This document shows, in pieces, positions 6,170 to 53,017 of a DNA stretch of 64,000 nt (its first letter is position 1; each line of letters begins with the position of its first letter). The DNA lies in IMG/VR virus record IMGVR_UViG_3300025362_000006; one strand, written 5' to 3'. This DNA comes from an uncultured virus (IMG/VR IMGVR_UViG_3300025362_000006) (Duplodnaviria; Heunggongvirae; Uroviricota; Caudoviricetes). The notes beneath the pieces are model-generated. The model saw only the letters and a program-made list of their open reading frames with translations. It was not told where the DNA came from and did no database searches. The position numbers were made by a program, and so were the translations under genes.

Positions 6170-6174
6170 TTTGA

Positions 6175-26484: not shown

Positions 26485-26805
26485 TATTGATTAGCGTCGT
26501 AACTTTGTGAATTGTCTGGAATACCCTTAGAGCTAATATAACAACAACGTGACTTGAAAAGGTGAGCGTGAGAACAGCACAAATGTCTGTTCGTGTTTAA
26601 AAATATATTAGATTGGGCAATCAGCAGCGAAGCTTTATTTAAAATATAAATAGAGAACGTTCAACGACTATCCCTACGGGGAGTACACTCAAGTGAGTGG
26701 AAGTACAAGGCATCGAAAGATGAAGATATAGTCTAATCTGTATAGAAATATACAGTGTATATAATAATACAAGATAGAATTAACGAATCTATCTTAATAC
26801 AAATG
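26485..26805 (+). ncRNA. group I intron (IA-like, no ORF) in terminase
   Basis: P1 GACGU/GCGUC with U.G; core AAUUGUCUGGAA, AAUCAGCAG, CAACGACUA, GAUAUAGUC; P7.1/P7.2; terminal G; removal restores frame. Confidence 0.9.
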
Positions 26806-30500: not shown

Positions 30501-33500
30501 AAGCTGCTGCAGGTGGTGGAGTGTTAGTTGGTGAAAATGGACCAGAGTACATAAAAGATAATAAATATGTTTACAATGCAGACCAAGCAAAATCTAAACT
30601 TGGATTGGATCTTCATAGTTTAGCATCTGACCCAAATGTACGTAAACTAGCTGGTGGAGGAACACTTCCATCTGCTGACGATCTAAAATCTGCCGAGGCC
30701 AAACCAGAAAATAATGTAGTAAGTATTGCCTCAAAAATGAAGGAAGATAAAGAAGAAAAGAAATACACAGAAGAACAAAAAATTCAAAATAAAATACTTT
30801 CGAATAGTGATGAAACTTATAAATTATTAACAGACATTGAAAAAAATACTAGAAAGAAAAATGAAAAGAAAAAAGATGGTATATTTTCAAAAGTACTTGC
30901 TGGATTAGCTGCATTACTTAGTGGCGGTGGTTTAGCTGCATTACTCACTGGAGGAGCGGCATTAGCAGCATTTTTTGGTACAGGGGGTAAGGTAGGAACA
31001 AAAGCAGTCGCCGGTATCGCTGGAAGGATGATGACAAAGATTCTTGCTGGTATTGGAAAAATATTTAAAAAATCAGGACCAGAATTATTAGAAACTATAT
31101 TTGAAAAGATTGGTAAAAACTTTACTAAAATGTGGCCAACCGCACTTAAAGCGTTAGGTGTAGGTAAAGGTTTCTTCACAGATTTAATCACTCACAGTTG
31201 GTCTTTTGTCAAATCAGGTATTAAAAAATTAATGCCTGATATGTTTGATAATATTGGTGCAAAATTAGCTGGTCTTGGTGGTAAAGCAGCTAAAATATTT
31301 AAAAAACTACCAGGGTCAACAGGCATCTTTAAAAAATTAGGTTCTGGATTACTAGAGAAAATAGGTCTTAAAGGTGTTGCTAAGATGGGAATGAAAGGTG
31401 CTGGAAAATTAATCAGTAAACTTATTCCAGGACTAGGGCTTCTTGTTGGTGGTTATTTTGCGGTTCAACGAGCATTAAAAGGTGAATGGCTTGAAGCAGC
31501 AGTTGAATTAGGGTCTGGTATAGCATCATTAGTTCCTGGATTCGGTACAGCACTTAGTCTTTCAGCTGATGTTTGGTTAGCTTTTCGAGATAGTAAAAAA
31601 GAAACTGTTGTTGATGGTGGTCCTGGCTCAAGGACTGGAGCAAAAAAAGAAAAAGTAGATGGACCAGGTCTGCTCAATAAAATGGGAACATTTATTACTG
31701 AAGGTTTTGCTAAAGTTGGAAACTGGATACTTGATAAAGTTTATGCCACACCATTTATTGGTGGATTTATTGAATCTTTTGTGACTGGTGTTAAGAATAC
31801 ATTCTTTGATGTTGTTGACACAGTAAAAGATGCTACGGTTGAAGATGGAAAACTTAAACCTGATTGGTTAGGTAGTCTTGCTACCACTATATGGGATGGA
31901 TTTGGAGAGTTTAAAGATAAAATATTTGAAGGAATTTATAAACTACCAATCATCGGTGGTGCAATTAAGTCTCTTATTACTGGTGTAGATAATGTAATGT
32001 TTGCAACTACTGAATTTGCTAAAGATATTGGAAAATCGGTAGACGGTGGACAGTTTAAACCTGGTTGGATGTCTCGACTGTGGACAACTGTGTCTGAAGG
32101 TTTTGGTAAAGTTAAAACTGTTATACTTGGAGAAATATATAAATTACCAGTCATCGGAGGGGTAATTAAGTCTTTAGTAACTGGTACAGAAAATGTGATG
32201 TTTGCAACTACTGAACTAGTGAAAGGTATTGGAAGTGCTGTCGATGATGGACAATTCAAACCTGGTTGGCCTGGTAGACTGTGGACAACTGTAAAAGAAG
32301 GTTTTGGTAATGTTAAAGATGCTATATTTGACGGTATATATAAACTACCGTTCATAGGTAGTTTTATAGAATCTTCTGTAACTGGTGTTAAAAATACTTT
32401 TTTTGCAACTCAAGACTTTGTTAACGAAACTAATGAAAAAATATCTAATTTTAGTATTTCGGATACTTTTCACAGCATTAAAGATTCATTAGTCACTAAA
32501 TCATCTGATTTTTTTGGTAAAATTCCTTTTATTGGGTCATATTTAAAAGATCGTATCCTTGGTAAAGAAACTAATATTCAAGAAACTCTAACAAATATTA
32601 AAACTGAAGTTAACAATAAAGCTAAAAACTTTAGTGTATCTGATACTTTTACAAATATTAAAGAAAAATATATTGAATTTGCTGCAACTATGTTTAACTC
32701 TGTCCCAATTATTGGTTCGTTCATAAAGAACTTTATTATGGGTAAAGACACAAATTTACAAGAAGAGTTAAAATTAGCTAATATTGATGCTAAAGACACA
32801 GCTAAAAGCTTTAGTATTACTAATACTTTTACAAATATTAAAGAAAAGTATATCGAGATTTATACTACATTATTTAAATCAATTCCAATTATTGGTTCAT
32901 TTATATCGAATTTTCTTATTGGAAAAGAAACTAATGTTCAAGAAGAGTTAAAATTAGCTAATATTGATGCTAAAGACACAGCTAAAAATTTTAGTATTTC
33001 GGATACTTTTCACAGCATTAAACTATTAGTAATAGAAAAAGCTGCTGGGTTTTTTGGTAAAATCCCACTTATTGGATCATGGTTAAGTAATGGTATGTTG
33101 GGTCTTGATCCTAGTTTTAAAAATGAACTCGACCAAATTAAATTAGATCAAGTAAAACAATCTCCTCAATTTAAATTAGCAGATATTTTAAATGATATGA
33201 TATCTGGTATACGAAAAGCTGCTGCTATTAAAGCTTCTTCGATTCCATTAGTTGGTGCTGTTATCGCCAACAAACTTTATCCAGAAGGTGATTTTGATGA
33301 AGATACTGAGATTGTTGATGGTAAGATAGTAAGTGAACCTAAGAGTCTTTCTAAGATTGCTCCTAAAAATATTCTTAAGAAATTAGAGAATCGAGGAGTT
33401 GTTGATATAAATAATATGATCCTAGGAGACAGATCAACAATTGCTGATAATCAATGGGATACTATTTCTGAATTATCTACACCACAACTTCAATCTGTTA

Positions 33501-36500
33501 TTGATTATGATGATTGGAGTAAAACAACTAAAGATAGATTATTAGAAATTCAAAAATCTAAAGAAACTACACGGTCTAATGTTGTGACCGCACCGAAAAC
33601 TGAAAAAGAAGTTTTACCTGTTAAGACTAAACAAATACCTGTGTCTGTTCCAAGAGGACCTGGTGCTATGTCATTACCAGAAGTTAATCACCCAGTTATT
33701 TCTAACCCAGTATCTACAAAAAAAGTTTTACAGACTAAATCAGTACCTGGACCACCGGATCGTTCGTTTGCAAGAGGTGGTATACTACCAGAGGGATTAA
33801 GTCTTATTGGTGAAGGTTCTTCTGGAAAAATAAGTGAACATGCTGAAGCAGCATTTACAGGAGTTAACCCAAGATCAGGTAAAGAAAAAACAACTATATT
33901 CCCTGCTGAATTGACAAGTAGAATGGGTATAACTAATGAAAATATGTCCAGCATTTTTGGAGATACTTCAAACATTCATGATAATTATGAATTTATTTCT
34001 GACATAGCGGAACTTGCAGGTACTGGAGTTAACTATATTGGAAAATCAAAATCAGTTGCGAAAGAGTTAAGTTCAAAAATAGTTAATATGTTTTCTAAAC
34101 GTGGTCTTAAGATGTTTGGGAAAAAAGTACCTGGTTTGGGAGCATTAATAGGTATTTATTCTGCATATGAAAAGTTTCAAGAAGGAGATAATGTTGGAGC
34201 AATGATGGAGATTGCTTCTGGATTAACTTCTTTTCTTCCAATCATTGGTACTGCGGCTGGTACCGCTATTGATATTGCTTCGATGGTAAGAGAAAGTAAA
34301 CGGGCTTCAAACGAAGCTGAAATTACTTCTGGTGGGGCTATTCCTGCATTTGAAAAAGGTGGTAAACTAAAACCTGGATTAAATATTGTTGGTGAAAAAG
34401 GTCCTGAAGCAGCATATGTAGACCCAAAGAAAAAAGATGTTCAAATTTACAATGCAGGACAAGCACAATCTAAATTTGGAATTGATGTTAATGATTCGAA
34501 TCCAAGTGTTGCTAAATTTGCTGATGGTCAAGAATCGAATAATCGACATAATAATTTATCAACTAATTTCAATTCATTATTAGATATTCGTTCAAAATTA
34601 GAACAATCAAAAACTGAATTGTCTGATATGGAAATTGAATTTCCTTCTAAACAAGTTGAACGAAGTGATGATTGGAGTCGTTGGACAGAGACAGTTTTTG
34701 ATGATCCAAAAATAGATAAACGATATGATAAACTAAGGGGTTCAATTCACGATTATAATAAAAGTTATAAAATAAAATTGAATAGATTATTTAAATTAGA
34801 TCCGAATCCTCCAAAAAGTTATAGTGAATTGTCTGGATATAGTTTATATCCAAATGAGATGAAAATATTCGATGAACAATTTGGAAAATTTGATCTATTT
34901 AATAATCAACAACAACAATGGTTCAAAACTACTTTATTTGACCTCCGTAAACAAAGGTTTTCTGAATTAGTAAAAAATGAAGAAACTCAACTTCCAACAC
35001 TAGATGAATCTGGGGTAGTTTCAGCTCCAAAAACTCAAGAAGAAGTTCAATCTGTCCCACAATCAAGGGCAGGAGCTAGAAAACGACTAATAGATAAACG
35101 AAAAGCAGCATTAATGAAATTAATGCCTAAGTCTACTCTTAAACCTGGAGAATCTGGAACAAGTTCATTTGAAGGCACTGTTTATAAACAACCTGGTCAG
35201 ACTGATTTTGATATGACAAAGGTTCAACCAGATACTACTATTTCTTCTAAACCAACTTGGACTTCTTCTAGAGGTATACCTGATCTTTCCTTTCTCCATG
35301 ATGAAAGTTCAACTAATTATGACTCTTCTGTTATTGGAAATTCTATGCATCCTACTCAACCTAATGCTCCTGGAGCATATGACACAGTAAAAGATGTAGC
35401 AGGTAAAGGATTTGATACTGCTAAGATACTTGGTACATCAGCTTATGATAAAGCAAAAGATTTAGGAAGTAAGGCAAAAGATTCTATCGTTGCTAATGCT
35501 CCTGGAGCATATGACACAGTAAAAGATGTAGCAGGTAAAGGATTTGATACTGCTAAGATACTTGGTACATCAGCTTATGATAAAGCAAAAGATTTAGGAA
35601 GTAAGGCAAAAGATTCTATCGTTGCTAATGCTCCTGGAGCATATGACACAGTAAAAGATGTAGCAGGTAAAGGATTTGATACTGCTAAGATACTTGGTAC
35701 ATCAGCTTATGATAAAGCAAAAGGACTAATTTCTGGAGACGATTCTACTTCATCTGAAATTCCTGTCATTGGAAACGCTATGCATCCTACTCAACCTAAT
35801 GCTGTCGGTCATGCAATGCATCCTACTCAACCTAAGAAATTTAAAGGTAAATTTGATGCAATGTCATTTGCTGGATCGTTTGCTTCTCAACTTACTGGAT
35901 TACTTGGTAGAGCAGGTAAAATGGCAGCTAAATTTGCTATTGGTGGTGTGCTTGGTGAAGACACATATGATAAAGTTGCTTCTGTGCTTTCTGGAGACGA
36001 TAAGAAACCAATTAAACCAGATACTGATAATTTAGATAGCCCTATTTGGGATGTAGTAAAGAATCATACTATGGCAAGTGAAGGAATTGTTCTTCATAAA
36101 TATAAAGATCATTTAGGTTATGACACTATTGGTGTTGGGCATTTAATTAAGAAAGGTGAACGATTTCCAGATAAGATTAGTTCAGGTGAAGCAAGAACAA
36201 TATTCAATAAGGACTTTAGAGAGCATAAAATGATGACTTCTCGAATGCCTGGATTTGATAAATTAGATGATGTACATCAAGGTGCAATAGTTGATATGGG
36301 ATTTAATTTAGGATTTGGTTCTGAAGCGAAAGGAACTGGTCTTATGGGATTTAAAAATACTCGTAAAAAACTAGTGTCTGGTGATTTTGCTGGAGCTGCT
36401 GGAGGTATACGTGATAGTAAATATCATAAACAAGTCCCAAATAGAGCTGAACGTATTGCTAAAGTTGTTGAAACTAGTGATCCAAGCTATTTCAATTCAG

Positions 36501-37114
36501 ACAAACCTCAAATCATTGCAAGACATGGGGCATTTACTGGCAAAGGTATTTCTGAGATGCTCAGTTCAAAGAAAACTATGCTTGCTGACAAAGCTAATCA
36601 AATGTTCAGTAATGTGTCCTCTAAAATAGAGGATGGGGCAAGAGGATTAGGTTTCACAGGTAAAGGTACTGCACCTATTTCTGCAACACTTCATCCAAAT
36701 GAATTTGTGTTTGGTAAAGGACAATTTGAAGGTTTGATGAGTAAGATTGTTGATGATACTAATGCTCAAATAGGTAAAAATCTTGATTTAAAACGAATGG
36801 ATATCTCAAATATTTTATCCAAAGCTAAAGAATTTGAGAAAGTTCAAAATGAAAATATTAAAGAGACTGCAAAGAAAGAAACTGATATACAAACTAAAGC
36901 AGCTAATCCTGCTCCACCAGTTATTGTAAATAATAACAACAATACCCAGGCAGCTCCACCACAGAATAATAGACAAGAAGCAGAAGGACAGTTTACAGAA
37001 ATTGATAATTCATTAGATAAAATGGTTTATAATTTATTTAATGCTTCTACAAACTCATTAATAACATTTATTAATGATTCTGTTTTTTCAAATAATGCTT
37101 CATTTGATTTTTAA
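27524..37114 (+). CDS. tape measure-like protein with C-terminal T4-type lysozyme (GH24) domain
   Basis: 3196 aa; Gly/Ala-rich hydrophobic and periodic helical repeats; EGIVLHKYKDHLGYDTIGVGHLI and SKYHKQVPNRA lysozyme motifs. Confidence 0.85.
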   Translation: MSTTNQKKNQSNSYLLKNQLEKANLNQNTPENQTTNLQYLEQRQQEQDRRNQEQLQYEQQQQNAPNVQDQADRIHSQSKQVKRGKVLNESDARKRQLKMNELSASKGYMAASMGASYVKQAGRTAENMGLGSVGGALLGSTGGFYQGGMKSISNAGRVNKRMEMAKHAKELGATGTTKRATSLINDTMRMSYSANLMKGLMGGQIAPTSSMKGSMVGGINSMFGAGGGAPVAIASAAGPGAGQAGIGSAIAGAGNAAATGAGSMISPGMAATVGLAALSMGSSMAANKKLRKLMVTKKTPGELERKYAKGSNLDSFYKSLRAQEQITPQQQLQYILLSYIEGHTSVLPELLSLNQQTSEGKDKAGKQLDGKYTKQTGISDDPDVLKHDSLLTTLENTLNLMITKYDPISQLTSFILTGSTPKKILEDIEKGKGLSKKELSEKDDSAHRLGISTDQFRLLGINSASLIAGLPSYEVKMLALASASYDMNRLIAQESATIRKHGLGVDHNSFNSPISKTGLFGKLENVVNLIPGLSAGYNVIKDTLLLPKKGAEFMKGLFKGGMNTIFGKDFLRHKDQKELDKDLGFDKSAQVKATEYTAEGLPTHMEKVRTLAAQQLDIQYNIFDVLTKQYNLTHEQTTGKKSEYGYTQKMDNDVLQERTWDSFEQKMLTGEGLEKALEKRQVMYQLQRDKDFKKSGINKLTMAGTLGLAGLVNIDRKQSLVDKITPGSIDTKKEKEQNIRSTIKDDTHVKEVDLETERKRATADVTKEIMLPLMSAMGLLTAVATGGVSAIVAGGGATALGSGVGGLLEINNENRRDKLLSELEEKNLGREAIEGRGITSIDDETKKRSNLANKTTSASSMGLSSPTLTSIIDKDKIVPDKIQVLHEMIDDRFGEVVDLFISPIQVENLSILSRLTAIKDRLTSPIGVDIKSFTSSLVRPIKKGFDRVVSKLNSKLKVDVKSNVFGDYKLKIPKDSSSILPGSGAADSYAEIKAAAGGGVLVGENGPEYIKDNKYVYNADQAKSKLGLDLHSLASDPNVRKLAGGGTLPSADDLKSAEAKPENNVVSIASKMKEDKEEKKYTEEQKIQNKILSNSDETYKLLTDIEKNTRKKNEKKKDGIFSKVLAGLAALLSGGGLAALLTGGAALAAFFGTGGKVGTKAVAGIAGRMMTKILAGIGKIFKKSGPELLETIFEKIGKNFTKMWPTALKALGVGKGFFTDLITHSWSFVKSGIKKLMPDMFDNIGAKLAGLGGKAAKIFKKLPGSTGIFKKLGSGLLEKIGLKGVAKMGMKGAGKLISKLIPGLGLLVGGYFAVQRALKGEWLEAAVELGSGIASLVPGFGTALSLSADVWLAFRDSKKETVVDGGPGSRTGAKKEKVDGPGLLNKMGTFITEGFAKVGNWILDKVYATPFIGGFIESFVTGVKNTFFDVVDTVKDATVEDGKLKPDWLGSLATTIWDGFGEFKDKIFEGIYKLPIIGGAIKSLITGVDNVMFATTEFAKDIGKSVDGGQFKPGWMSRLWTTVSEGFGKVKTVILGEIYKLPVIGGVIKSLVTGTENVMFATTELVKGIGSAVDDGQFKPGWPGRLWTTVKEGFGNVKDAIFDGIYKLPFIGSFIESSVTGVKNTFFATQDFVNETNEKISNFSISDTFHSIKDSLVTKSSDFFGKIPFIGSYLKDRILGKETNIQETLTNIKTEVNNKAKNFSVSDTFTNIKEKYIEFAATMFNSVPIIGSFIKNFIMGKDTNLQEELKLANIDAKDTAKSFSITNTFTNIKEKYIEIYTTLFKSIPIIGSFISNFLIGKETNVQEELKLANIDAKDTAKNFSISDTFHSIKLLVIEKAAGFFGKIPLIGSWLSNGMLGLDPSFKNELDQIKLDQVKQSPQFKLADILNDMISGIRKAAAIKASSIPLVGAVIANKLYPEGDFDEDTEIVDGKIVSEPKSLSKIAPKNILKKLENRGVVDINNMILGDRSTIADNQWDTISELSTPQLQSVIDYDDWSKTTKDRLLEIQKSKETTRSNVVTAPKTEKEVLPVKTKQIPVSVPRGPGAMSLPEVNHPVISNPVSTKKVLQTKSVPGPPDRSFARGGILPEGLSLIGEGSSGKISEHAEAAFTGVNPRSGKEKTTIFPAELTSRMGITNENMSSIFGDTSNIHDNYEFISDIAELAGTGVNYIGKSKSVAKELSSKIVNMFSKRGLKMFGKKVPGLGALIGIYSAYEKFQEGDNVGAMMEIASGLTSFLPIIGTAAGTAIDIASMVRESKRASNEAEITSGGAIPAFEKGGKLKPGLNIVGEKGPEAAYVDPKKKDVQIYNAGQAQSKFGIDVNDSNPSVAKFADGQESNNRHNNLSTNFNSLLDIRSKLEQSKTELSDMEIEFPSKQVERSDDWSRWTETVFDDPKIDKRYDKLRGSIHDYNKSYKIKLNRLFKLDPNPPKSYSELSGYSLYPNEMKIFDEQFGKFDLFNNQQQQWFKTTLFDLRKQRFSELVKNEETQLPTLDESGVVSAPKTQEEVQSVPQSRAGARKRLIDKRKAALMKLMPKSTLKPGESGTSSFEGTVYKQPGQTDFDMTKVQPDTTISSKPTWTSSRGIPDLSFLHDESSTNYDSSVIGNSMHPTQPNAPGAYDTVKDVAGKGFDTAKILGTSAYDKAKDLGSKAKDSIVANAPGAYDTVKDVAGKGFDTAKILGTSAYDKAKDLGSKAKDSIVANAPGAYDTVKDVAGKGFDTAKILGTSAYDKAKGLISGDDSTSSEIPVIGNAMHPTQPNAVGHAMHPTQPKKFKGKFDAMSFAGSFASQLTGLLGRAGKMAAKFAIGGVLGEDTYDKVASVLSGDDKKPIKPDTDNLDSPIWDVVKNHTMASEGIVLHKYKDHLGYDTIGVGHLIKKGERFPDKISSGEARTIFNKDFREHKMMTSRMPGFDKLDDVHQGAIVDMGFNLGFGSEAKGTGLMGFKNTRKKLVSGDFAGAAGGIRDSKYHKQVPNRAERIAKVVETSDPSYFNSDKPQIIARHGAFTGKGISEMLSSKKTMLADKANQMFSNVSSKIEDGARGLGFTGKGTAPISATLHPNEFVFGKGQFEGLMSKIVDDTNAQIGKNLDLKRMDISNILSKAKEFEKVQNENIKETAKKETDIQTKAANPAPPVIVNNNNNTQAAPPQNNRQEAEGQFTEIDNSLDKMVYNLFNASTNSLITFINDSVFSNNASFDF
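35363..35723 (+). repeat. 132-bp coding tandem repeat x~2.7 (44 aa, 11-residue periodicity)
   Basis: Identical units at 35363, 35495, 35627. Confidence 0.92.
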
Positions 37115-43051: not shown

Positions 43052-45211
43052 ATGGGCAGTCTACTAAGCCAGTTATTAGGATCTCCAGATCTGTCAAATA
43101 TTGACAATAAAATAGATGATATTATTCAGAATTTAAACAACCCGAATTCAAAGTCTACAACCGAAACCGAGTCTAAAAATTTAGATGATGTTACTGGAGA
43201 TTTTTTAAATCTGTTTCAAAAAGAAAAAGATAAAGAAGGTGAAAACGGGGGTGAAGGAACTAACGGTCAATTTGATCAATTATTTCAGAATATGAATGTC
43301 CCGGCGGAAAGGTTACAAAGATATAACTTATATGATGAATTATATCAATCTGTACCAATGATGAAACGGATATTGACTGTTTATATTTCTAATATTGTTC
43401 CAAAGAATCCAGTTAATGATGACGTGTTTATTTATACAGAAATTGAAAATAAACAGACTAGTGATTCTGTTAACTTGACTCAACAAAAAGAACAGTATAA
43501 AGAGATTGTTAAAAAATTTAATTTGTCGAATAGGCTAAAGAAATATATTTTGCCATATAGATTAAAGTATGGTGATTATTTTGTTGAAGTTATAAATGTT
43601 GATGAAATGCTGTCAACTTCAAAATTAAAACAAGTACTAACAAATACTTCAACATCTGTCATTTCAGAATGTAAACGAATTAACAATAAATTAGATACAA
43701 CAGCAAATGCAGTACTAACTGAAGATGCATTTGATCAAGTACTATCATCAACGTCAAAGATGTTATTTGATTATAGTGATTATGATAGTGATCTAACTAA
43801 TATGATGGATGTTGATGAGTTAAAAGAAGTATTTAGTGAATCTGGATCTAACGTTGGAGTAATTTGTGATGCAGAAGCCGATGATGAAAACGGTAAAGAA
43901 ACTGTTAAAGATATTGAAAATGATAATGTCCGCGAGCAAGAAAAAGCAGACAAGATTAACTTCGATAACGTATTATTAAGATATCATTTACCCCATAATA
44001 TTATTATTCTAGAAACTAAATACGGTACTACTCTTGGATATCTTGAAGTTAATAAAGATAAAAACGACACTGGAGCATCTTCGATATCTAGTATGGTTCA
44101 AAAGGTAGTATCGAAAGGTAAGAACAATCAGCAACAAAATGTTGATAAACTTATACAGCATGTTCTCCATAATATTTTTCATAAATCTATAACAAAATCA
44201 AAAAAGTCGATAGATTCAGTTATTTCCTCACTATCTCCTGATGTATTTAATTTTATCAAAAGGCTAATCATTGAAAATGATTTGACTAATGATAAAAATA
44301 TTTCAAATGTGAATAAAATCAAAGTTAGATTTATTCCACCAAAGGGTATGGTTCATTTTAGTAATCCTGATGGTTCAGATTATTTGCCTTTTGCATCTTC
44401 TGTTCTTGACCCTTTGTTGTTACCTGGTAAGTTGTATATGTTGACTCAATTGTCTAACATAATTACCAAACTATCTCGTGCTTCGGTCATTCGTAAATGG
44501 ACACTTGATATGGGAAGCTCGAAAATGTCCGCTCAGAATTTACAAAAATTAAAGAAAGAAATATATAACACTCGAGTAACACTCAATGATCTTGGTTCAT
44601 TTAAAAGTATTTCAAAGATTCTTTCTGATTTTAGAGATATGTTTACAATAAGTCAGAATGGTCGCACACCTGTCGATATGAGTATTGAACAGACAGGTGA
44701 TCCGAATATCAAAACGGAAGATTTGAGAGATTTGAGAAATGAGCTTGTGTCGATGTCGGGAATTCCTGCTACTTTTCTGGGAATGAATGATGTGATTGAG
44801 TTGCGTGAGCAACTTGTTCATATCAATCAGAACTTCGCCACTGAGATTTCTAACCATCAAGATAATGATATTCGAGCGTTGAATGATTTGATGAAGAAGA
44901 TTTGTAATAATCTTGGTTACGATGACAAGACTAACCCGACTAATTTTTATCGGATAACATTGATTCCACCAATTACTTTGATTTTGCAACTTATAGAAAC
45001 CACTTTGCAATCCATAGGCAATATATCTAGTATATTCAATCAACTTGAGATTCCTGTTGATCCTTATCATCTCTTGGAAAATTATCTTCCACAGATCGAT
45101 TGGGACACATTCAAGAAGAAAGCTGAAACTTATAAGATGAAAAATGATTTAAAAGAAGCTCAAACTGCTGGTGGAGGTAATGATGGAGGTGGAGGAGGTA
45201 GTCAATGGTAA
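43052..45211 (+). CDS. portal protein, T4 gp20-like
   Basis: KYGDYF, SRASVIRKWTLDMG, GIPATFLG motifs; upstream of protease and capsid genes. Confidence 0.8.
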   Translation: MGSLLSQLLGSPDLSNIDNKIDDIIQNLNNPNSKSTTETESKNLDDVTGDFLNLFQKEKDKEGENGGEGTNGQFDQLFQNMNVPAERLQRYNLYDELYQSVPMMKRILTVYISNIVPKNPVNDDVFIYTEIENKQTSDSVNLTQQKEQYKEIVKKFNLSNRLKKYILPYRLKYGDYFVEVINVDEMLSTSKLKQVLTNTSTSVISECKRINNKLDTTANAVLTEDAFDQVLSSTSKMLFDYSDYDSDLTNMMDVDELKEVFSESGSNVGVICDAEADDENGKETVKDIENDNVREQEKADKINFDNVLLRYHLPHNIIILETKYGTTLGYLEVNKDKNDTGASSISSMVQKVVSKGKNNQQQNVDKLIQHVLHNIFHKSITKSKKSIDSVISSLSPDVFNFIKRLIIENDLTNDKNISNVNKIKVRFIPPKGMVHFSNPDGSDYLPFASSVLDPLLLPGKLYMLTQLSNIITKLSRASVIRKWTLDMGSSKMSAQNLQKLKKEIYNTRVTLNDLGSFKSISKILSDFRDMFTISQNGRTPVDMSIEQTGDPNIKTEDLRDLRNELVSMSGIPATFLGMNDVIELREQLVHINQNFATEISNHQDNDIRALNDLMKKICNNLGYDDKTNPTNFYRITLIPPITLILQLIETTLQSIGNISSIFNQLEIPVDPYHLLENYLPQIDWDTFKKKAETYKMKNDLKEAQTAGGGNDGGGGGSQW

Positions 45212-45711
45212 ATTTATCAATGCATGATTTGTATCTCGGTGTTGATGATAGTGTTGAAGCAGGTTTGGTTTGTGCTATTGCTGAGGCTACTGATCCTGAT
45301 CCTGATCCTGATGATGATAACGGTGTTGGCATAGGTACTGCTGATGCTGAAGACATTCCTGACGAAGCGGAAGGAGTGGCTCCAGAATCTGATGCGGACG
45401 ATGGTGCAGATACTGGCAAAGGTACTCAAGCTAATGCAGCAGCGACTGATCGTGTTGAGGAGGAAAGAAAACTTTCTGAAAATCCCGAGCTTGAATCTTT
45501 GAAGAAGTTTTTGTTGATTCAAAAATTGCAAGATTTGAATACTAATTTGATGAAACATAATATTTTGAATGATAGTCTATCGACTTTCTTAGAATTTTGT
45601 GGAACACTGAGTTATGATACTATCGTGTCAATTAGTGCAGGGTTTACTGATTATATTATACAGAATTTAGGTACACTTAATAAGGAAACTTCTGCTATTG
45701 ATGTTAAGTAG
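45205..45711 (+). CDS. acidic prohead core/scaffold-like protein
   Basis: Very acidic low-complexity N-half; position between portal and protease. Confidence 0.5.
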   Translation: MVNLSMHDLYLGVDDSVEAGLVCAIAEATDPDPDPDDDNGVGIGTADAEDIPDEAEGVAPESDADDGADTGKGTQANAAATDRVEEERKLSENPELESLKKFLLIQKLQDLNTNLMKHNILNDSLSTFLEFCGTLSYDTIVSISAGFTDYIIQNLGTLNKETSAIDVK

Positions 45712-45806: not shown

Positions 45807-45881
45807 ATGGGAGGAGAGATTAATTACCTCGTTGGGTTGCTATCACAACCTTCCTCCCATTCTTTAACCTTGATAGAGGAG
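45807..45881 (+). promoter_or_regulatory. structured leader with RBS-pairing pseudoknot (copy 1)
   Basis: Stem ATGGGAGGA/TCCTCCCAT; hairpin loop CTATCA complementary to TGATAG at 45871-45876 abutting SD. Confidence 0.7.
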
Positions 45882-45889
45882 ATTTTATT

Positions 45890-47075
45890 ATGACCGATTT
45901 TGATTGTGTTGATATTATTAATGTTCCAACAACTAAATCTTGTTCTTGTATTGATTGTGTACAAATTAATCCACAACAATTATGTAATTTCACTAAAAAC
46001 CCAAATAGCAAAGATGGTAAAGAATCTTTTTGTAAATTTTGTATAAGTCGAAGACGTACAGAAAAAAGGGTCCTTCAAAAATTTTTTGCTATAATGAAAA
46101 CTACGCATATAGATCAATTTAAAACAACAGTAGCTTGTGTTTATATTTCACAAACTCACACATGTAATTTGAAAAGTAAACGATTGTTGAATAATTTTAA
46201 ATTGACAGAACAAGAATTAATTGAAATATTAAAAGATGAACAGGTATTTCAATATAAAATATGTATAAGTTGTCAACAACTAAAACCTTTTGACGAATAT
46301 TATAAAATGAGTAAAAACTCTCTACAATCAATTTGTATTCTATGTCAACAAGATTTATATAAAAAATAGTGAAAGCATTAAAACTAATTCTAAGGTATAT
46401 AGAAATGGCCCAGGTAAATATGATACGTATGCTAAACAATTGTTTGCAGACGATTGTAGACGATCGAAACATGATCCATCAGTTTTAGAATTAAAATGCA
46501 CATATTGTGGTCGTTATTATTCGCCATCCATTAATCAAATTTCGAATAGAATACGATCGACTGCTGATAATGCTAAATATGTAGACATTAGATTATATTG
46601 TTCAACTAATTGTAAACAATCGTGTCCAATGTTTAGTAGAACAGTAGACCAACTAATAAATGTAGATGCAAAAATAAATTCTGAAACCAGTATTCCATTG
46701 AATCGAGAGATTCAAGCTCAGTTACGTCAAATGGTTCTTGCTCGGGATAACTACACTTGTCAAAAGTGTGGTAAACATCAGGATAACTTAGATGTGGGGC
46801 TTCATGCACATCGTATCGAAGGTATTCGTCATAACCCCATCGAATCTGCAGATATTGATATGGTTATCACAGTCTGTGTTAATTGTCATAAAGAGATCCA
46901 CAGACAACCTGGGTGTACTAGACAAGATATGATGTGTAATTTAGAAGATTATGATGAAGATACAATGAACAAAATCAAAAAAAATAAAGAAATCAAAAAA
47001 CAAGATATTGATAAAGTTGAAGATATTGAAATAAATATATCTAATGAAATGTTAGAAGATATTTTATTTTATTAG
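45890..47075 (+). pseudogene. free-standing HNH homing endonuclease, frameshifted (ORFs 45890..46369 and 46440..47075)
   Basis: CxxC zinc modules, RDNYTCQKCG...CVNCHKEIH; frames join at A6 run 46361-46366; HHI motif reads HRI. Confidence 0.8.
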
Positions 47076-47094
47076 ATTAACATAGGAGACACCA

Positions 47095-47339
47095 ATGGCT
47101 AGTAAAGCGAAAAAGTTTGGCTTTATATTTGAGCAAACGGTGGTCGTCCCGAATAGTAAGCTTGAGATTCTTGAAGAATCTTTGACTGACGATAAGCGAC
47201 CAAGGGTACATTTCAGATCTCTTTTACAAGAATCTGGAGTAAAGAATCAAAATAATAGAATTTATGGTCAGCCGGTTTGTGAAAGTATAGTTGCACAACT
47301 TGCTCCTAAAGCAAAAGCAAGAAATTTGTTAATGGAAGT
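47095..47339 (+). CDS. prohead protease (T4 gp21-like), exon 1 (join 47095..47339,47701..48232; 258 aa)
   Basis: LQESGVKNQNNRIY motif; splicing restores MEV|DHP catalytic His motif. Confidence 0.9.
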
Positions 47340-47700
47340 AAAATGATCTGCTTCCCATATTCAGTGATGAGTATGAAAAAAATCTCGTGAACTGTCTGGG
47401 ATATCCTTAGAGCTAATATAACTACAACGTGACTTGAAAAGGTGAGCGTGAGAACAAATATTTGTTCGTGTTTGAAAATATATTAGATTGGACAATCAGC
47501 AGCGAAGCTCCTGTAAAATGGAGAACGTTCAACGACTATCCCGAAAGGGAGTACACTTCAAGTGAAGTGGAAGTGCGAGACAACTTATTTTTTTATTTTC
47601 AGTAAGTTGAAGATATAGTCTAATCTTATAAGAAATTATGAGCAAGAAGAATTTAACTTCTTCTTAGATAGAATTAACGATTCTGTCTGAATGGATGATG
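47340..47700 (+). ncRNA. group I intron (IA-like, no ORF) in prohead protease
   Basis: P1 GGAAGU/GCUUCC, 7-bp P10 AUGAUCU/AGAUCAU, P/Q/R/S core, terminal G 47700. Confidence 0.93.
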
Positions 47701-48232
47701 AGATCATCCTCTATTTGGAATCAGTGATCCAAATCAATTAAAACGTCGAGCAGGAATCGTAGAGATTCGCAATTGTGGGGCGTACATCAAGGACATCTCC
47801 TATAAAGGTAATCAAGTGATTGGAGAAATTCAAACTCTGTCTGGTTTTCAAGGACCTAGTTTAGCTAACCTTATTCTCCGAGACAAAGTCAATATAGGTT
47901 TTTCATTACGAGCTTTAGGATCTGTTGAACCACTCACTGATGGGACATTAGATGTCAAGATGCCACTTCGTGCGATTACATATGATATCGTGAGTTCGCC
48001 GTCGCATGATAATGCTCGCATCACGGAGTTCCTACCAGAGTCATTCATATGTGAATCCGCAGATGAATCTGGAATTTTAGCAGAAGCAGCAGATTTATCA
48101 TTACTTGAGCAGCAAGATAATATTGTTATTGATAATGTAAATGGAAATCATTATATTCAGGCTTTTACAGATGATTTGATTCATGAGACTTTCTTAAATA
48201 TTATTAATAAAGGTCTACGATTTAAACTTTAA
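47701..48232 (+). CDS. prohead protease, exon 2
   Basis: DHP...IGFSLRALGS...TYDIVSSPSH motifs of S77/gp21-type proteases. Confidence 0.9.
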
Positions 48233-48298
48233 TTAATACTCCTCTAAGTCTAACACTTAGAGATTCAATATAACTATTTCTAGAGGAAGAGGTTTACA

Positions 48299-49171
48299 AT
48301 GGAATTAATATTTGAAAATTACGAAAACTTCATTACGGAAAATAAAGACGAGCTCAATTCTCCAAGAGATGCATATCGGCTTTTGCACGATGATGCGATG
48401 TTCAGGAGCTATAAAGACAGTTTGCTCGAAGGTATTGATGAAGCTGTGCGTCCGAGTATTATGGGTGTTTTGGATCGCCAAAGAGAAATGCTGCTTTCTG
48501 AGGCAGCGAACGTGGGGAGTAGCTCATTCGCAGCTGGGTGGACTGTGATGTCGTTTCCGATTTTGGTCGACATATATGCAGAGCCATTAATATCAGAAAT
48601 TTGTACTTCCTACCCAATTTCTAAGTCAGTAATCTCCATCCCCCGTATGAGGGTAAAAGCCACAACTACGTCTTATGATGGGACTACAGAAACATCACGT
48701 TACATTCCTACTGCAACTGAACTCGTCAGAGCAAATGAAGAAGTAGTAACAGTAACTCCTGGAACAAATTATAACATCTATACTGGATTGGGTTTCACTA
48801 TTGCAACTCATAAAATGAATAGACGTTATAATATTATGTATTCTACTGCTATCACTGAGACTAAAACTGGTGGTGGTACTGAAGATCATACTGTTGTTCT
48901 TAATTATCGTCCTGATAACCGTAATCAGATTGCCCAGACCTTTACATTCACTAGTTCTGATAGTGAGACTGTCACTGGTAATGTAATGGCTCATGTAAAT
49001 AATGATGCTGGTACAGTATCTGTTCAAATTACATTTGATATTGGTGATTCTACTTCTACTTTTGAAGCAGATACAGCTACATTTAAACTGCGTTTTCGTC
49101 CTGTTGGATCTAATCACGGACGAACTAAAGTTAGTGTGACTACTGAAATGATAGATTGTACCGTGGACCCT
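48299..49171 (+). CDS. major capsid protein, exon 1 (join 48299..49171,49571..49615,49996..50052,51353..51813,53018..53147; 521 aa)
   Basis: Follows protease; acidic prodomain ending LLSE|AAN; spliced product has a gp23-like EDIQDFNSIFKIDV...QIALNKD helix. Confidence 0.88.
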
Positions 49172-49570
49172 AAGACTTGTTGGGGCTTATGTTAGTAATG
49201 ACATTCGAAGAACTTCTTTAACTGTCTGGAAACTCCTTAGAGCCAAATAACTACAACGTAACTTGAAAAGGTAAGCGTGAGTCACTTTTGTGTGACGGAT
49301 TGTATAGTTAAAAAATATTTGGATTGGACAATCAGCAGCGAAGTCTCTAATTAAAAATTCGCAATTTTTATATGAGAAACGTCCAACGACCATCCCGCGA
49401 GGGAGTACACTTCAAGTGAAGTGGAAATAGGAAGGTTCCTATATTTTCAATGTTACACATAGGAACGTGATATGGTCTGTTCTTCATAGAGATATGGAGC
49501 AAAAATATTTTTATTTATTCAACTAAAATTATTTTTGTTTATGATTTAACGCATCGTAAATAATATCAAG
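49172..49570 (+). ncRNA. group I intron 1 of MCP (no ORF)
   Basis: P1 CCCU/GGGG, core AACUGUCUGGAA, AAUCAGCAG, CAACGACCA / GAUAUGGUC (covarying P7), terminal G. Confidence 0.9.
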
Positions 49571-49615
49571 AACGAAGATTTCCTTCTCGAGCTAGAGACT
49601 GAAGATATTCAGGAT
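49571..49615 (+). CDS. MCP exon 2 (45 nt, NEDFLLELETEDIQD)
   Basis: Between terminal G of intron 1 and P1 (GGAU/GUCC) of intron 2; in frame. Confidence 0.82.
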
Positions 49616-49995
49616 ACCCAGTTGGTTCTCTATTAAAAATCAACTAAGTCCCTTGTATCAGTAATGATATTCGAAAAACTCTCTTAATTGCTGGAACGTC
49701 CTTAGAGCTAATATAACTACAACGTAACTTGAAAAGGTAAGCGTAAAGTTCATTTATGAACTATGTTTGAAAATATATTAGATTGGAAAATCAGCAGCGA
49801 AGCTCCTGTAAAATGGAGAACGTTCAACGACTATCCAGGAATGGAGTAGGATTCAAGCGAATCCGAAATAGAAAGTACCCAATTATCATCTATTGGGTAA
49901 TGATATAGTCTAGACTATATAGAAATATATAGTAGTTTATATGACGATTTTACATATAAACAGGAATAGGTTCGCGACTTATTTCGAATATTTCG
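49616..49995 (+). ncRNA. group I intron 2 of MCP (no ORF)
   Basis: Extended P1, AAUUGCUGGAA, AAUCAGCAG, CAACGACUA, GAUAUAGUC, P9 with GAAA loop. Confidence 0.9.
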
Positions 49996-50052
49996 TTCAA
50001 CAGCATTTTTAAAATCGACGTACTAAGAACGATTACAGAAGCAATTAAGCGT
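49996..50052 (+). CDS. MCP exon 3 (57 nt, FNSIFKIDVLRTITEAIKR)
   Basis: In frame between introns 2 and 3. Confidence 0.82.
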
Positions 50053-50310
50053 TAACCTTAGCGCCGTATGGCAGTAATGTCATATGAAAATTTCGTGAAT
50101 TGTCTGGGATACCCTTAGAGCTAATATAACTACAACGTGACTTGAAAAGGTGAGCGTGAATGTTTGAAAATATATTAGATTGGGCAATCAGCAGCGAAGT
50201 CTCTAAGTAAAATTTGTTATTTTATATGAGGAACGTTCAACGACTATCCCGCAAGGGAGTAGAATTCAAGTGAATTCGAAGTACGAAACAACCCATTGTA
50301 GTGATTACTT

Positions 50311-50410
50311 ATATGGGGAAACAGATTGGGATTTATGTACTCTAATTAAGTACCCCAATTGACTTAGGTGCCGATACACTTGAGTCTCCCCGCCCATATC
50401 TTATCGGAGG
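50311..50410 (+). promoter_or_regulatory. structured leader with RBS-pairing pseudoknot (copy 2)
   Basis: Stem ATATGGG/CCCATAT; hairpin loop CCGATA complementary to TATCGG 50402-50407 overlapping SD GGAGG. Confidence 0.72.
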
Positions 50411-50417
50411 TCAACTA

Positions 50418-51215
50418 ATGAAAGTATGAACATGTGCAGGATGTAAGAAAAGCGAACCTGAAGTAGAATTTTATGCAGCGGGAAGACATTGTAAAAAATG
50501 CAGGTCTGTTAATAATGTGAGAAAATATTACACCGAACAGATTGGTCAATTTGAATTAATTGGTATTCAAGAATTACACAAATTTCAACGATCTTTTTTG
50601 TATAATTCTATCCACAAAAGAAAACGGTCTTTAGAATTCTGTTCCCAAGTAATGGGATATCCAATTGACAAATTAGAATCTGCATTAAATTCAATTGGGT
50701 ATTATGAGGATAATCATGGTTGGTGTTCCAAGTGTGCTATACTAAAACCGTTAAGTGAATTTAGTATATCTACTACTCTAAAGTGTGGACATCACTATTG
50801 GTGTAAAGAATGTGATAACGCCGGTACAAAACAATATAAATTAGATAACCATGAAAAACATCTGGAATATTGCAAAACTCATTATCATAAAAACAAAGAA
50901 CAATGTGCAGCATATGGTAAACAATATAGAAAAGATAACCCCGACAAAATAGCACAATACGGTTTAAAACAACGCACTAATTATAAACAAGCAACGGCTT
51001 GTTGGGCAGATTTGGATAAACTCAAACAAATTTATTTGGAACGGGACAGATTAACTGAAGAAACGGGCATACGACACAATGTTGATCACGTAATTCCCTT
51101 AAATGGGAAGAATGTGTGTGGTCTACACGTAGAGACCAATCTCCAAATCTTAACTGAAACAGAAAACAAATCAAAAAGTAACAAATTTGAACCAATTATC
51201 GAATCGTTCAAATAG
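50418..51215 (+). pseudogene. intron-encoded HNH endonuclease with TGA at codon 4 (open part 50517..51215)
   Basis: SD GGAGG + ATG 50418 in frame; CxxC modules; HNVDHVIPL...GLHVETNLQIL...N HNH motif. Confidence 0.8.
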
Positions 51216-51352
51216 TCAAAACAAAAAATCATATCATATATTATCATGGGTTGATAATATAGTCTGGTCTGTGTAGAAATATACAGCCGTTGTTCAAGTC
51301 CAATCTTTACTTGAACACGGAATAAGAGTAACGATCTTATTTGAACATAACG

Positions 51353-51813
51353 CAAATCGCCTTGAATAAAGATTACGATTTGGTATATTTTTTAGCGGCG
51401 AGCGAGACCTCCATGGCAGATTATGGAGCCCGTTTCACGGTTGATCTTGACAACTTCAAGGGGGATAGTAATTATAAGCCGTCTACCCCGATCGATGTAT
51501 TCAAGGCAATTATTCCTCACATCTCCACATTAATGGGAGTGATCCGCAAAAATTATCAAATGTATCCGTCATACCTAGTCGCTGGGATTAAAACCGCATC
51601 TATGCTTCGATCACTCCAGGAAATGATGGTTAGTCTTCCTGGTGATCGTGGTGGAATGGGTTTCGGTGGAACAACTGCTCAGTTCTTGAAATTGAAAATT
51701 CTTGAATCTGTATCAGCTGACGAAAATAAGATTTATCTTACAACGAAAGCTCCTGCAAATGCTCTTGAGAAAGCGTCAATCATTGATCTCATCTATCAAC
51801 CTCTCTACATCGT
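51353..51813 (+). CDS. MCP exon 4
   Basis: QIALNKDYDL...LIYQPLYIV; YQPLY resembles the gp23 YxPY motif. Confidence 0.88.
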
Positions 51814-52061
51814 TAACTAATAGCGACCTTATGCAGTAATGTATATTGAATAACCTTGTGAATTCATGGGAAGCCTAACTCTGAAAAGATATGGTAATCA
51901 TGAGCCAAGCTTTAATGAGACCACTAATTTCATTATTGAAGGTGCAACGACTATCGAAACCACATCTAGTAAATTAGATGGAAGGGAGTAGAGTACACAA
52001 CGAGTGTTGTGGAAGCGCAAGGTATCCGAAAAGAAAAAACCAGAAACAATTTTTTAAAAGT

Positions 52062-52142
52062 TTCTGGGGGGACAACGGTTGATCGCCGGATAATTACCTA
52101 TTTAATTATCTTACCCTCAGAATCTATCATATCTAATAGGAG
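52062..52142 (+). promoter_or_regulatory. structured leader with RBS-pairing pseudoknot (copy 3)
   Basis: Stem TTCTGGGGG/CCCTCAGAA; hairpin loop CCTATT complementary to AATAGG 52135-52140 overlapping SD AGGAG. Confidence 0.72.
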
Positions 52143-52150
52143 AAAATATA

Positions 52151-52901
52151 ATGTTAAACAAAAAACCAGTAAAAACAACAAAAATCTGTTCGCGAAAAAC
52201 ATGTAGATGCCCATATAAAGGTATGCCCCAGCCAATTGAAAACTTCACCAAACAATCATCATCAAAAGATGGTTATTATCCAGCTTGTAAAGCTTGCGTT
52301 GCAGCATACGAAGAATCAAAAGGAATACATAAATACCGTAAAGATTTCACAAAAAAATGGAAACAAGAATTAGCTAAATTCGATATCTCTGCAGACAATA
52401 TTTCTTATTGTGAACAAGTAAGAAGAGATCCTGACAATTCTGAATTACTTCAAGTGCAATGTTCATTGTGTAAAAATTGGATGAATCCAAAAAATGGTCA
52501 AGTCCATAATCGAACAAGTGCATTAGATGGTAAAAAAGCTGGAGAATCAAAGTTCTATTGTAGTGAAGAATGTAAAAAACAGTGTCAGACTTATCGAAGA
52601 CAAACACATCGTAAATCTGAAGCTAAAAATTATAGTCCTATGAATAGAGATGCTACGGTTCAATATCTATCATCTGCGTAATATGGCATTAGAAAGAGAT
52701 AATTATACTTGTCAAAAATGTGGGTCAACAGAAAATTTGATCTGTCATCATATCGAGTCAATAAATGAAAATCCAATAGAAAGTGCAGATCTTGATAATG
52801 TTGTAATGTTATGTACAATATGTCATGAAGAAATTCATTCACGTGTCGGTTGTCGTCGACAAGATTTGACATGCGAAAATATAAAAATTAACATAGGTTA
52901 G
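52151..52901 (+). pseudogene. intron-encoded HNH endonuclease, frameshifted by TATC duplication
   Basis: ORFs 52151..52681 and 52650..52901; removing one TATC (52664-52671) gives VQYHLRNMALERDNYTCQKCG...CHHIE...CTICHEEIH. Confidence 0.85.
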
Positions 52902-53017
52902 TGGCCTAGTACCAACTTCGGATAATGATATAGTCTTGTCTGTATAGAAATATGCAGCAGTAGTGTATAATCAATTACCCTACGAATAGAGTCTAACGAA
53001 TTCTATTGAAAATTACG

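Follow-up and report, generated by a model that had tools for sequence, protein, structure and literature searches.

A junction-forming leader RNA predicted to lock the Shine-Dalgarno sequence of nuclease genes in uncultured tailed phages

Results

Leaders and nuclease genes at the locus

The DNA analysed here, referred to as the window, is a 64,000-nucleotide (nt) stretch from an uncultured tailed phage (Caudoviricetes; IMG/VR record IMGVR_UViG_3300025362_000006) with a T4-type capsid protein, relatives of which are 36-55% identical. It contains three RNA leaders, directly downstream of which, and on the same strand, are nuclease-type genes encoding an HNH, an endonuclease-VII-like and a further HNH protein. 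In each leader an outer stem (P1) encloses two hairpins (P2 and P3), and the P3 loop is complementary to bases overlapping the Shine-Dalgarno sequence (SD), which lie in a small downstream hairpin (P4). Junction strands are denoted J1/2 and J3/1, and R1-R3 are covariance models described below.

Leader 1, of a free-standing gene: 45807..45881, + strand; folding, exact loop complement, model R3
Leader 1, P1: 45807-45815 / 45852-45860, + strand
Leader 1, P2 of 3 base pairs (bp): 45816-45818 / 45828-45830, + strand, loop AUUAAUUAC
Leader 1, P3: 45834-45839 / 45846-45851, + strand, loop CUAUCA 45840-45845
Leader 1, P4: 45868-45870 / 45877-45879, + strand, loop UGAUAG 45871-45876
Leader 1, SD AGGAG: 45877-45881, + strand; ATG 45890
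Leader 2, inside a capsid-gene intron (P8 loop): 50315..50411, + strand; folding, loop complement, tail likeness to copy 3
Leader 2, P1: 50315-50319 / 50387-50391, + strand
Leader 2, long P2 of 37 nt: 50324-50360, + strand
Leader 2, P3: 50361-50370 / 50377-50386, + strand, loop CCGAUA 50371-50376
Leader 2, P4: 50398-50401 / 50408-50411, + strand, loop UAUCGG 50402-50407, then AGG; ATG 50418
Leader 3, canonical member, inside the following intron (P8 loop): 52062..52143, + strand; folding, loop complement, models R1 and R3
Leader 3, P1: 52062-52070 / 52114-52122, + strand; J1/2 GACAA
Leader 3, P2: 52076-52079 / 52085-52088, + strand, loop UGAUC
Leader 3, P3: 52089-52096 / 52103-52110, + strand, loop CCUAUU 52097-52102; J3/1 UUA
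Leader 3, P4: 52132-52134 / 52141-52143, + strand, loop AAUAGG 52135-52140, then AG; ATG 52151
Nuclease gene 1, zinc-ribbon N-terminus and HNH: 45890..47075, + strand; open reading frames (ORFs) 45890-46369 and, in the +1 frame, 46380-47075
Nuclease gene 2, endonuclease-VII-like HNH (phrog_1035): 50418..51215, + strand
Nuclease gene 3, homologous to gene 1, HNH PF01844: 52151..52901, + strand; ORFs 52151-52681 and, in the +1 frame, 52650-52901

That the three leaders share one architecture, as proposed in a first-pass annotation of this DNA, is borne out by RNAfold: P1 enclosing P2 and P3 is the minimum-free-energy fold of all three, with energies for copies 1, 2 and 3 of -24.5, -31.5 and -23.5 kcal/mol, z-scores of -2.11, -1.92 and -2.01, and 5, 6 and 8 of 200 shuffles folding as well as the leader. 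The first hairpin of copy 1 is indeed weak, as had been noted, and the exact complementarity reported for the 6-nt loop is present in every copy, with 6/6 Watson-Crick pairs between the P3 loop and its SD-overlapping target. The target is itself the loop of P4, i.e. cct[TGATAG]agg, atct[TATCGG]aggt and tct[AATAGG]aga, with stems of 3, 4 and 3 bp, and the SD bases outside the loop make up the 3' strand of P4 in all three copies. What was originally termed a 'pseudoknot' is thus not the pairing of a loop with a single strand; since the target is inside the P4 loop, the predicted contact is an intramolecular kissing complex, which would lock the SD a second time. The tails of copies 2 and 3 can be aligned (CATATCT-T/A-AT-C/A-GGAG), and at both positions where they differ the P3 loops carry a matching difference.

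In a loose chance test, a loop complement of at least 6 nt was also found at 7/116 other SD-like ATGs in the window. A stricter test (stem of at least 6 bp, entire 6-nt loop matched 10-60 nt downstream; 100 shuffles) gave 11 matches in the window versus 5.4 +/- 2.5 in the shuffles; the matches before the start of a long ORF were nuclease leaders only, two in the window versus a shuffle mean of 0.13, with copy 2 being missed because of the stop codon in gene 2. A TATATGGG box common to copies 1 and 2 was considered as a shared motif and rejected as not significant (4 window matches, equalled in 13/100 shuffles). Upstream of leader 3, an 8-bp hairpin (CCAGAAAC/GUUUCUGG; 52040-52067) shares bases with the 5' strand of P1, so that only one of the two structures can form at a time.

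Genes 1 and 3 are homologous, both encoding zinc-ribbon modules and HNH PF01844; the similarity of gene 2 to gene 1 is not significant (E 0.13). Each of the three genes has one lesion in an otherwise open frame (46361-46369, 50427-50429 and 52650-52681). The frame of gene 1 breaks at an A6 run (46361-46366), codon 4 of gene 2 is an in-frame TGA (50427-50429) in place of the Arg of its homolog P0002 (MKVRTC), and the shift in gene 3 leaves UAA-U-AUG, which could permit restart. The same sequence is present in contigs of two other runs at the gene 1 A6 run and in the copy 3 region. The lesions may represent decay, or low-level recoding acting as a further brake.

The claim that the element precedes every HNH gene holds for all three nuclease genes among the 52 window ORFs scanned, but not for a fourth ORF carrying an HNH label in PHROG, which lacks a leader. 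This ORF (4820-6169, within 4820-7377 on the minus strand) follows an ATPase gene (phrog_1297); its PHROG name 'HNH endonuclease' (phrog_1314) is misleading, the Pfam match being to a DUF2201 metallopeptidase-like and VWA protein.

Family members beyond the window

Nine IMG/VR loci of phage relatives were found via capsid alignment, and in three of these a descriptor scan located the same leader before nuclease-type genes, with the full junction fold in each. Models R1 and R2 cover P1-P3 only, so contain no target information; R1 was seeded from a single sequence, given twice, because MAFFT alignments of the leaders were not structure-consistent, and R2 was built from seven sequences. R1 matched copy 3 at E 4e-5, and together the two models found members in four of nine related-phage loci and records, with further members in L163 and L164 and in L176 and L180, which are whole records behind the loci. 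The P3 loop is complementary to the SD-abutting bases in all five of the members first found by model (L164:1919, L164:1145, L163:1507, L176 and L180), the loop/target pairs being CCUAAU/AUUAGG, CCGUAU/AUACGG, CCUAUA/UGUAGG, CUGUUUC/GAAACAG and CUUAUAU/AUAUAAG, with one G-U in the complement of L163:1507 (CCUAUA/UGUAGG). A pattern combining the conserved P1 strands and GGAG gave 82 stretches in IMG/VR, often several per contig, and among the 80 loci retrieved, R2 recognises a member in 50 (E up to 0.01).

A comparison set of 48 distinct members was assembled, 43 from the IMG/VR pattern set together with L164, L169, L176, L180 and copy 3. In the canonical form a P1 5'-GGAGG strand is paired to CUCC-3', P2 is followed by a P3 of 8-10 bp with a 6-7 nt loop starting C-C/U, and the junction elements are J1/2 (G)ACA and J3/1 U-N-A. 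Copy 3 (P1 GGGGG/CCCUC, J1/2 GACAA, J3/1 UUA) is close to canonical; copy 1 has P1 GGGAGGA/UCCUCCC and no J3/1, and copy 2 has P1 GGGGA/UCCCC and J1/2 AACA, also without J3/1. Model R3, built from IMG/VR members only, with no window sequence, was run on the whole window with filters off; its best match was copy 3 (41.7 bits, E 2.8e-7) and its second copy 1 (23.1 bits, E 0.0041), the next-best match in the window scoring 12.4 bits. Copy 2 is a divergent variant, assigned to the family on its fold, its kissing pair, its P4 and a tail resembling that of copy 3.

The whole P3 loop is Watson-Crick complementary to its target in 45/48 members, or 47/48 allowing one G-U, across 36 distinct loop sequences; on swapping loops and tails between different members, 20/2230 pairs were complementary. 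L219, which fails the loop/target match, is probably not a family member. The loop contact overlaps the SD in 47/48 members, and a P4 stem of at least 3 bp surrounds the target in 41/49, with a mean of 4.5 bp versus 0.67 at control positions. Overall, 95.5% of stem cells are paired, versus 42-54% with the partner slid; P3 is 99.7% paired, with seven of its nine pairs changed on both sides, and a conserved G-U in P2 fits the RNA strand. Thus, the compensatory change that the first-pass annotation saw among the window copies extends across the family, and its proposal that the structure occludes the SD finds support in a covarying pairing; the homologs returned by covariance-model searches of phage metagenomes retain the loop/SD complementarity. 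We regard the structure, and the existence of a leader family, as almost certain.

Genes behind the leaders

Nuclease or NUMOD3 domains are present in 21 of the 34 ORFs scanned behind members (7 HNH, 5 GIY-YIG, 8 NUMOD3 only and 1 His-Me finger); four have other domains and nine none. HNH_3 domains are found behind the leaders in L164 and L180. The genes behind family leaders are mostly free-standing, and in 20 IMG/VR member loci no group I intron was detected (Rfam, E up to 0.01). The leader is a cassette common to unrelated nuclease families in one group of uncultured phages and is not tied to introns; given the variety of nuclease families behind it, and the lack of an intron in the 20 member loci, it belongs to mobile nuclease genes generally within this phage group.

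Leaders with perfect loop pairing also occur before dead genes, in L164:1919-2010 (identical to L231 and L236), L164:1145-1260, L194, L216 and L187, where the ORFs are of 7, 18, 11 or 16 codons or the start codon has turned AUA. The L164:1919 leader, with perfect pairing, is inside a group I intron, the ORF of which is down to 7 codons. Two weaker members with a perfect 7-nt loop/target match (L213:897-1342 and L252:523-984; E 4e-5 and 7e-5; GC content ~0.55) precede DUF5055 proteins rather than recognisable nucleases, and in these loci the leader may have been borrowed by another gene.

The first-pass view that the element travels with the nuclease gene, rather than with the ribozyme, stands with respect to introns (one window copy is free-standing and two are in introns), but not with respect to any single nuclease lineage. 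L081, the one close relative given by a metagenome scan, is the closest relative of the gene 2 protein for which DNA was examined (41% identity, same capsid gene). Its nuclease homolog (in 1-1554) is carried by an intron; where this intron interrupts the capsid gene, the window has the ORF-less intron 49162. None of 160 loci (L001-L160) contains an R2 match, and a loop/SD scan of 73 distant gene 2 relatives in IMG/VR gave a complement of at least 6 nt in one and of 5 nt in three, with no enrichment. The leader does not, therefore, travel with one nuclease lineage. A descriptor scan of the 160 loci (471,539 nt) gave five matches (L052, L058, L067, L068 and L129), which were treated as chance or a different element; those in L067/L068 and L129 precede a nuclease homolog, and neither passes R2.

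Single-sequence searches of IMG/VR with the three proteins gave no useful close relatives, the gene 3 protein has no tblastn match in cultured phages, and the cultured-phage relatives of the gene 2 protein are only distant; in Vibrio phage vB_CoeS_P1, the fold upstream of the gene 2 homolog is unlike that of the leaders.

Introns and surrounding genes

The 64 kb contain six group I introns: the large-terminase and head-protease genes have one each, and the major-capsid gene has four, which split it into five exons within ~4.8 kb.

26475-26755: group I intron in the large-terminase gene (Rfam RF00028)
43052-45211: large ORF with no Pfam or PHROG match; portal by position only
45205-45711: small ORF
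47330-47642: group I intron interrupting the head-protease gene (RF00028)
49162-49499: first group I intron of the major-capsid gene (RF00028)
49636-49932: second group I intron of the major-capsid gene (RF00028)
50043 to ~51300, + strand: third group I intron of the major-capsid gene, holding leader 2 and gene 2 (RF00028; 5' part 53.6 bits, 3' part 23.2 bits)
51804..52957, + strand: fourth group I intron of the major-capsid gene, holding leader 3 and gene 3 (RF00028; 52.0 and 31.2 bits)

By eye, and relative to the ORF-less intron 49636-49932, the P8 pairing of the third capsid-gene intron comprises AACCCAT (50290-50296) with ATGGGTT (51246-51252); that of the fourth, also assigned by eye, comprises TATCCGAA (52023-52030) with TTCGGATA (52917-52924). 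Comparison with the ORF-less introns suggests that the P8 loop is the site of nuclease genes 2 and 3.

The base composition of the window is ~31% GC. One capsid relative (P0132) has the Pfam Gp23 domain (PF07068), and capsid exon 1 as a single-sequence query gave no relatives. DNA near-identical to the window is present in salt-lake metagenome runs, with no RNA run among those listed; among cultured phages there is no close relative, DNA matches being limited to intron cores. Elsewhere in the window, a 3196-residue ORF (27524-37114) matches tape-measure, peptidase/endolysin and baseplate-hub lysozyme families, and the ORF at 15815-16846 has weak matches to Cas4-like nucleases (phrog_1706; PADLOC Cas4, E 5e-6).

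Comparison with known RNA elements

At the Rfam 15 gathering scores only Intron_gpI matches in the window; nothing was found on the leaders at E up to 5, or in 20 member loci at E up to 0.01, in agreement with the original impression that the element belongs to no named family. Searched with R3 at E up to 1, the complete T4 record (NC_000866.4) gave no match; in T4 plus four other cultured phages nothing fell below E 0.6, and a blastn search of cultured phages with one IMG/VR member gave no match. No account of homing endonucleases with a junction or kissing-loop leader turned up in searches of the literature.

In the guanidine-II (mini-ykkC) riboswitch, two hairpins with kissing loops control access to the SD; the loops are conserved ACGR ligand-site loops and the kiss is ligand-induced. 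By contrast, the leader loops (CUAUCA, CCGAUA and CCUAUU in the window) contain no ACGR and, being hypervariable and fully complementary, cannot form a conserved pocket. Folding also keeps type I toxin mRNAs, such as hok, inert. The mRNAs of this type, e.g. dinQ (PMC5066626), resemble the leaders in that a harmful protein's mRNA is silenced by an SD-occluding leader structure, but differ in that processing at the 5' or 3' end activates them and antisense RNAs act against them, neither of which is known for the present leaders. In preQ1-type riboswitches, too, a loop-to-tail helix takes in part of the SD; however, these are small ligand-binding H-type pseudoknots with conserved pockets (PMC11625349).

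The nearest functional parallels are in mobile nuclease genes. According to PMC2988022, hairpins sequestering the ribosome-binding site (RBS) repress T4 I-TevI, I-TevII, I-TevIII and segB and Aeh1 mobE, and loss of the I-TevI hairpin lowers splicing of the td intron. As in the present family, a leader structure acting in cis hides the SD of mobile nuclease genes, the genes are both intron-borne and free-standing and encode different nuclease families, and the arrangement is rationalised as holding nuclease levels down and preventing ribosomes from entering the intron (PMC2988022). By contrast, the T-even elements are described there as single hairpins with the SD in the stem, whereas here one part of the SD pairs in a 3-4 bp stem and the other in a loop-loop helix with a distant hairpin; and they are relieved by an internal late promoter (TATAAATA), whereas no such box is present in the three window linkers. 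The three-way junction with kissing loops likewise sets the present leaders apart from the T4 elements, for which R3 detects no homology in the T4 genome.

Conserved 5' untranslated region (UTR) hairpins before GIY-YIG and other free-standing endonucleases were reported among 'fractured genes' in ocean metagenomes and proposed to attenuate translation (Dassa et al. 2009, PMC2677866). They are similar to the present family in being endonuclease leaders of uncultured phages, and in that one hairpin is kept after gene loss; there, however, a single long hairpin accounts for both motifs, one on each strand, and often includes TATAAATA. The sequences printed there, as compared by text rather than figures, show no GGAGGACA...CUNACUCC junction or loop-loop pairing (PMC2677866).

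Discussion

The anatomy of the leader and the T4 precedent make it likely that the leader represses translation in cis. In the proposed mechanism, the three-way junction would act as a scaffold presenting the P3 loop to the P4 loop, which holds the first Gs of the SD and the preceding 4-5 bases; the rest of the SD (AGG/AGGU) would form the 3' strand of the P4 stem, such that the entire SD is double-locked. 30S subunits would then bind only rarely and the nuclease would be made at a low level; in the two intron-borne copies, ribosomes would also be kept out of the intron. The favoured model is of an essentially constitutive lock, with leak, because two strands resemble an anti-SD, the 3' strand of canonical P1 (CUCC) and the 5' strand of P4, and no alternative fold freeing the SD is evident.

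Several observations weigh against this reading, or limit the evidence for it. Within the window, copy 2 was undetected by R2 and R3 (R3 being run on the whole window at E up to 10) and copy 1 is detected only weakly by the models. All three window nuclease genes carry a disruption, a +1 shift in genes 1 and 3 and the codon-4 TGA in gene 2, so, unless they are recoded, the window leaders now regulate no intact nuclease. Among the 48 members, 8 precede ORFs of <40 codons with the pairing intact; the leader thus either outlives the gene, in which case the ORFs were lost recently, or has a function in its own right. In L081, only 19 nt separate P8 from the ATG and the junction leader fold is absent. 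The 48-member count involved trimming three over-long predicted loops to the matched part and setting one by hand; P1 and the SD were fixed by the search pattern in the IMG/VR set, and the alignments were fitted to the model. The members are also related by descent, so the counts show consistency rather than independent events.

An alternative to a constitutive lock is a regulated switch, in which the P3-P4 kiss would be made or broken when a ligand, protein or second leader RNA binds to the junction (J1/2 ACA, J3/1 UUA) or to a self-complementary P2 apex. The junction bases are conserved across members and the P2 apex contains a palindrome of at least 6 nt in 27/48 members, comprising at least six different sequences, compared with 4/48 for P3 and 11% of shuffles; examples in the family (L181-L260) include UGAUCA, UGGCCA, UAGCUA, GUGCAC and CUGCAG, and the window apices are UGAUC (copy 3, 52080-52084) and AUUAAU/UAAUUA (copies 1 and 2; 45819-45827, 50344-50352). 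However, 11/48 members lack an apex palindrome, there is no Rfam riboswitch match, the two anti-SD-like strands can only mask the SD, and with nucleases from unrelated families behind the leaders autoregulation by the encoded protein is unlikely. Such a switch is thus unlikely, and nothing in the analysis supports the responsiveness to ligand, protein or splicing that was initially suggested. The self-complementarity of the P2 apex, which resembles a retroviral dimerisation loop, does suggest RNA-RNA dimerisation or a dyad-symmetric binding partner. In a doubtful but specific form of this idea, the leader would be a communicating device, with the P2 apex selected for self-complementarity so that leaders of different nuclease genes pair within one infected cell, and dimerisation would set the SD lock by stabilising the junction or by creating a site for a double-strand RNase.

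Roles that do not depend on a closed lock throughout infection, or on translation at all, have also to be weighed. An internal late promoter between P1 and P4 could give transcripts lacking P1-P3, with the SD free late in infection, as demonstrated for I-TevI (PMC2988022). The capsid protein of these phages is of Gp23 type (PF07068 on P0132) and, by reading, ~11/46 member linkers have ATAAA-type A/T runs just 5' of P4, but the motif is not general in the family and the window linkers (TTCTTTAACCT, CCGCCCATATCT and AGAATCTATCATATCT) contain no TATAAATA-like box, also by reading; such temporal control is considered quite improbable. A scan of the window for TATAAATA gave 374 matches, too many to discriminate in DNA of this base composition. 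A small ribozyme or a processing/stability element, defining or protecting the 5' end of the nuclease mRNA or freeing the mRNA from the intron, for which the lariat-capping ribozyme of eukaryotic twin-ribozyme introns is a model, would accord with the position of the leader at the gene's 5' end inside intron loops, its persistence before dead ORFs and its compact junction with a tertiary contact. Yet a variable, fully covarying contact that overlaps the SD is not required by a role in cleavage or stability, there is no conserved candidate catalytic core beyond the junction, and no Rfam ribozyme matched at E up to 5; this is very unlikely. The occurrence of copies 2 and 3, L164:1919 and L180 in intron P8 loops could alternatively reflect an accessory intron domain keeping the inserted gene apart from the ribozyme core, but with copy 1 free-standing, no intron in the 20 IMG/VR member loci and no such domain beside the homologous intron gene in L081, we give this almost no weight.

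With translational repression in cis retained as the preferred role, the leaders probably constitute a widespread, uncatalogued family of mRNA leaders of phage homing-endonuclease genes. A few T4-type hairpins have already made it known that homing endonucleases have to be held in check; here the probable nuclease throttle is a defined, strongly covarying RNA family, with a three-way junction and an intramolecular kissing complex, that is absent from Rfam, common to unrelated nuclease families (HNH, HNH_3 and GIY-YIG) across many uncultured phages. The leader provides a sequence handle for mobile nuclease genes and their remnants in viral metagenomes and, as a natural, modular and tunable SD lock with a freely varying 6-7 nt loop pair, would be useful for synthetic biology. 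The self-complementary P2 apex raises the question of RNA-RNA dimerisation; were leader dimerisation to occur, all the selfish nucleases of a phage would be under collective, dose-dependent control. More generally, the family offers a clean system for how selfish genes and host introns or phages negotiate expression.

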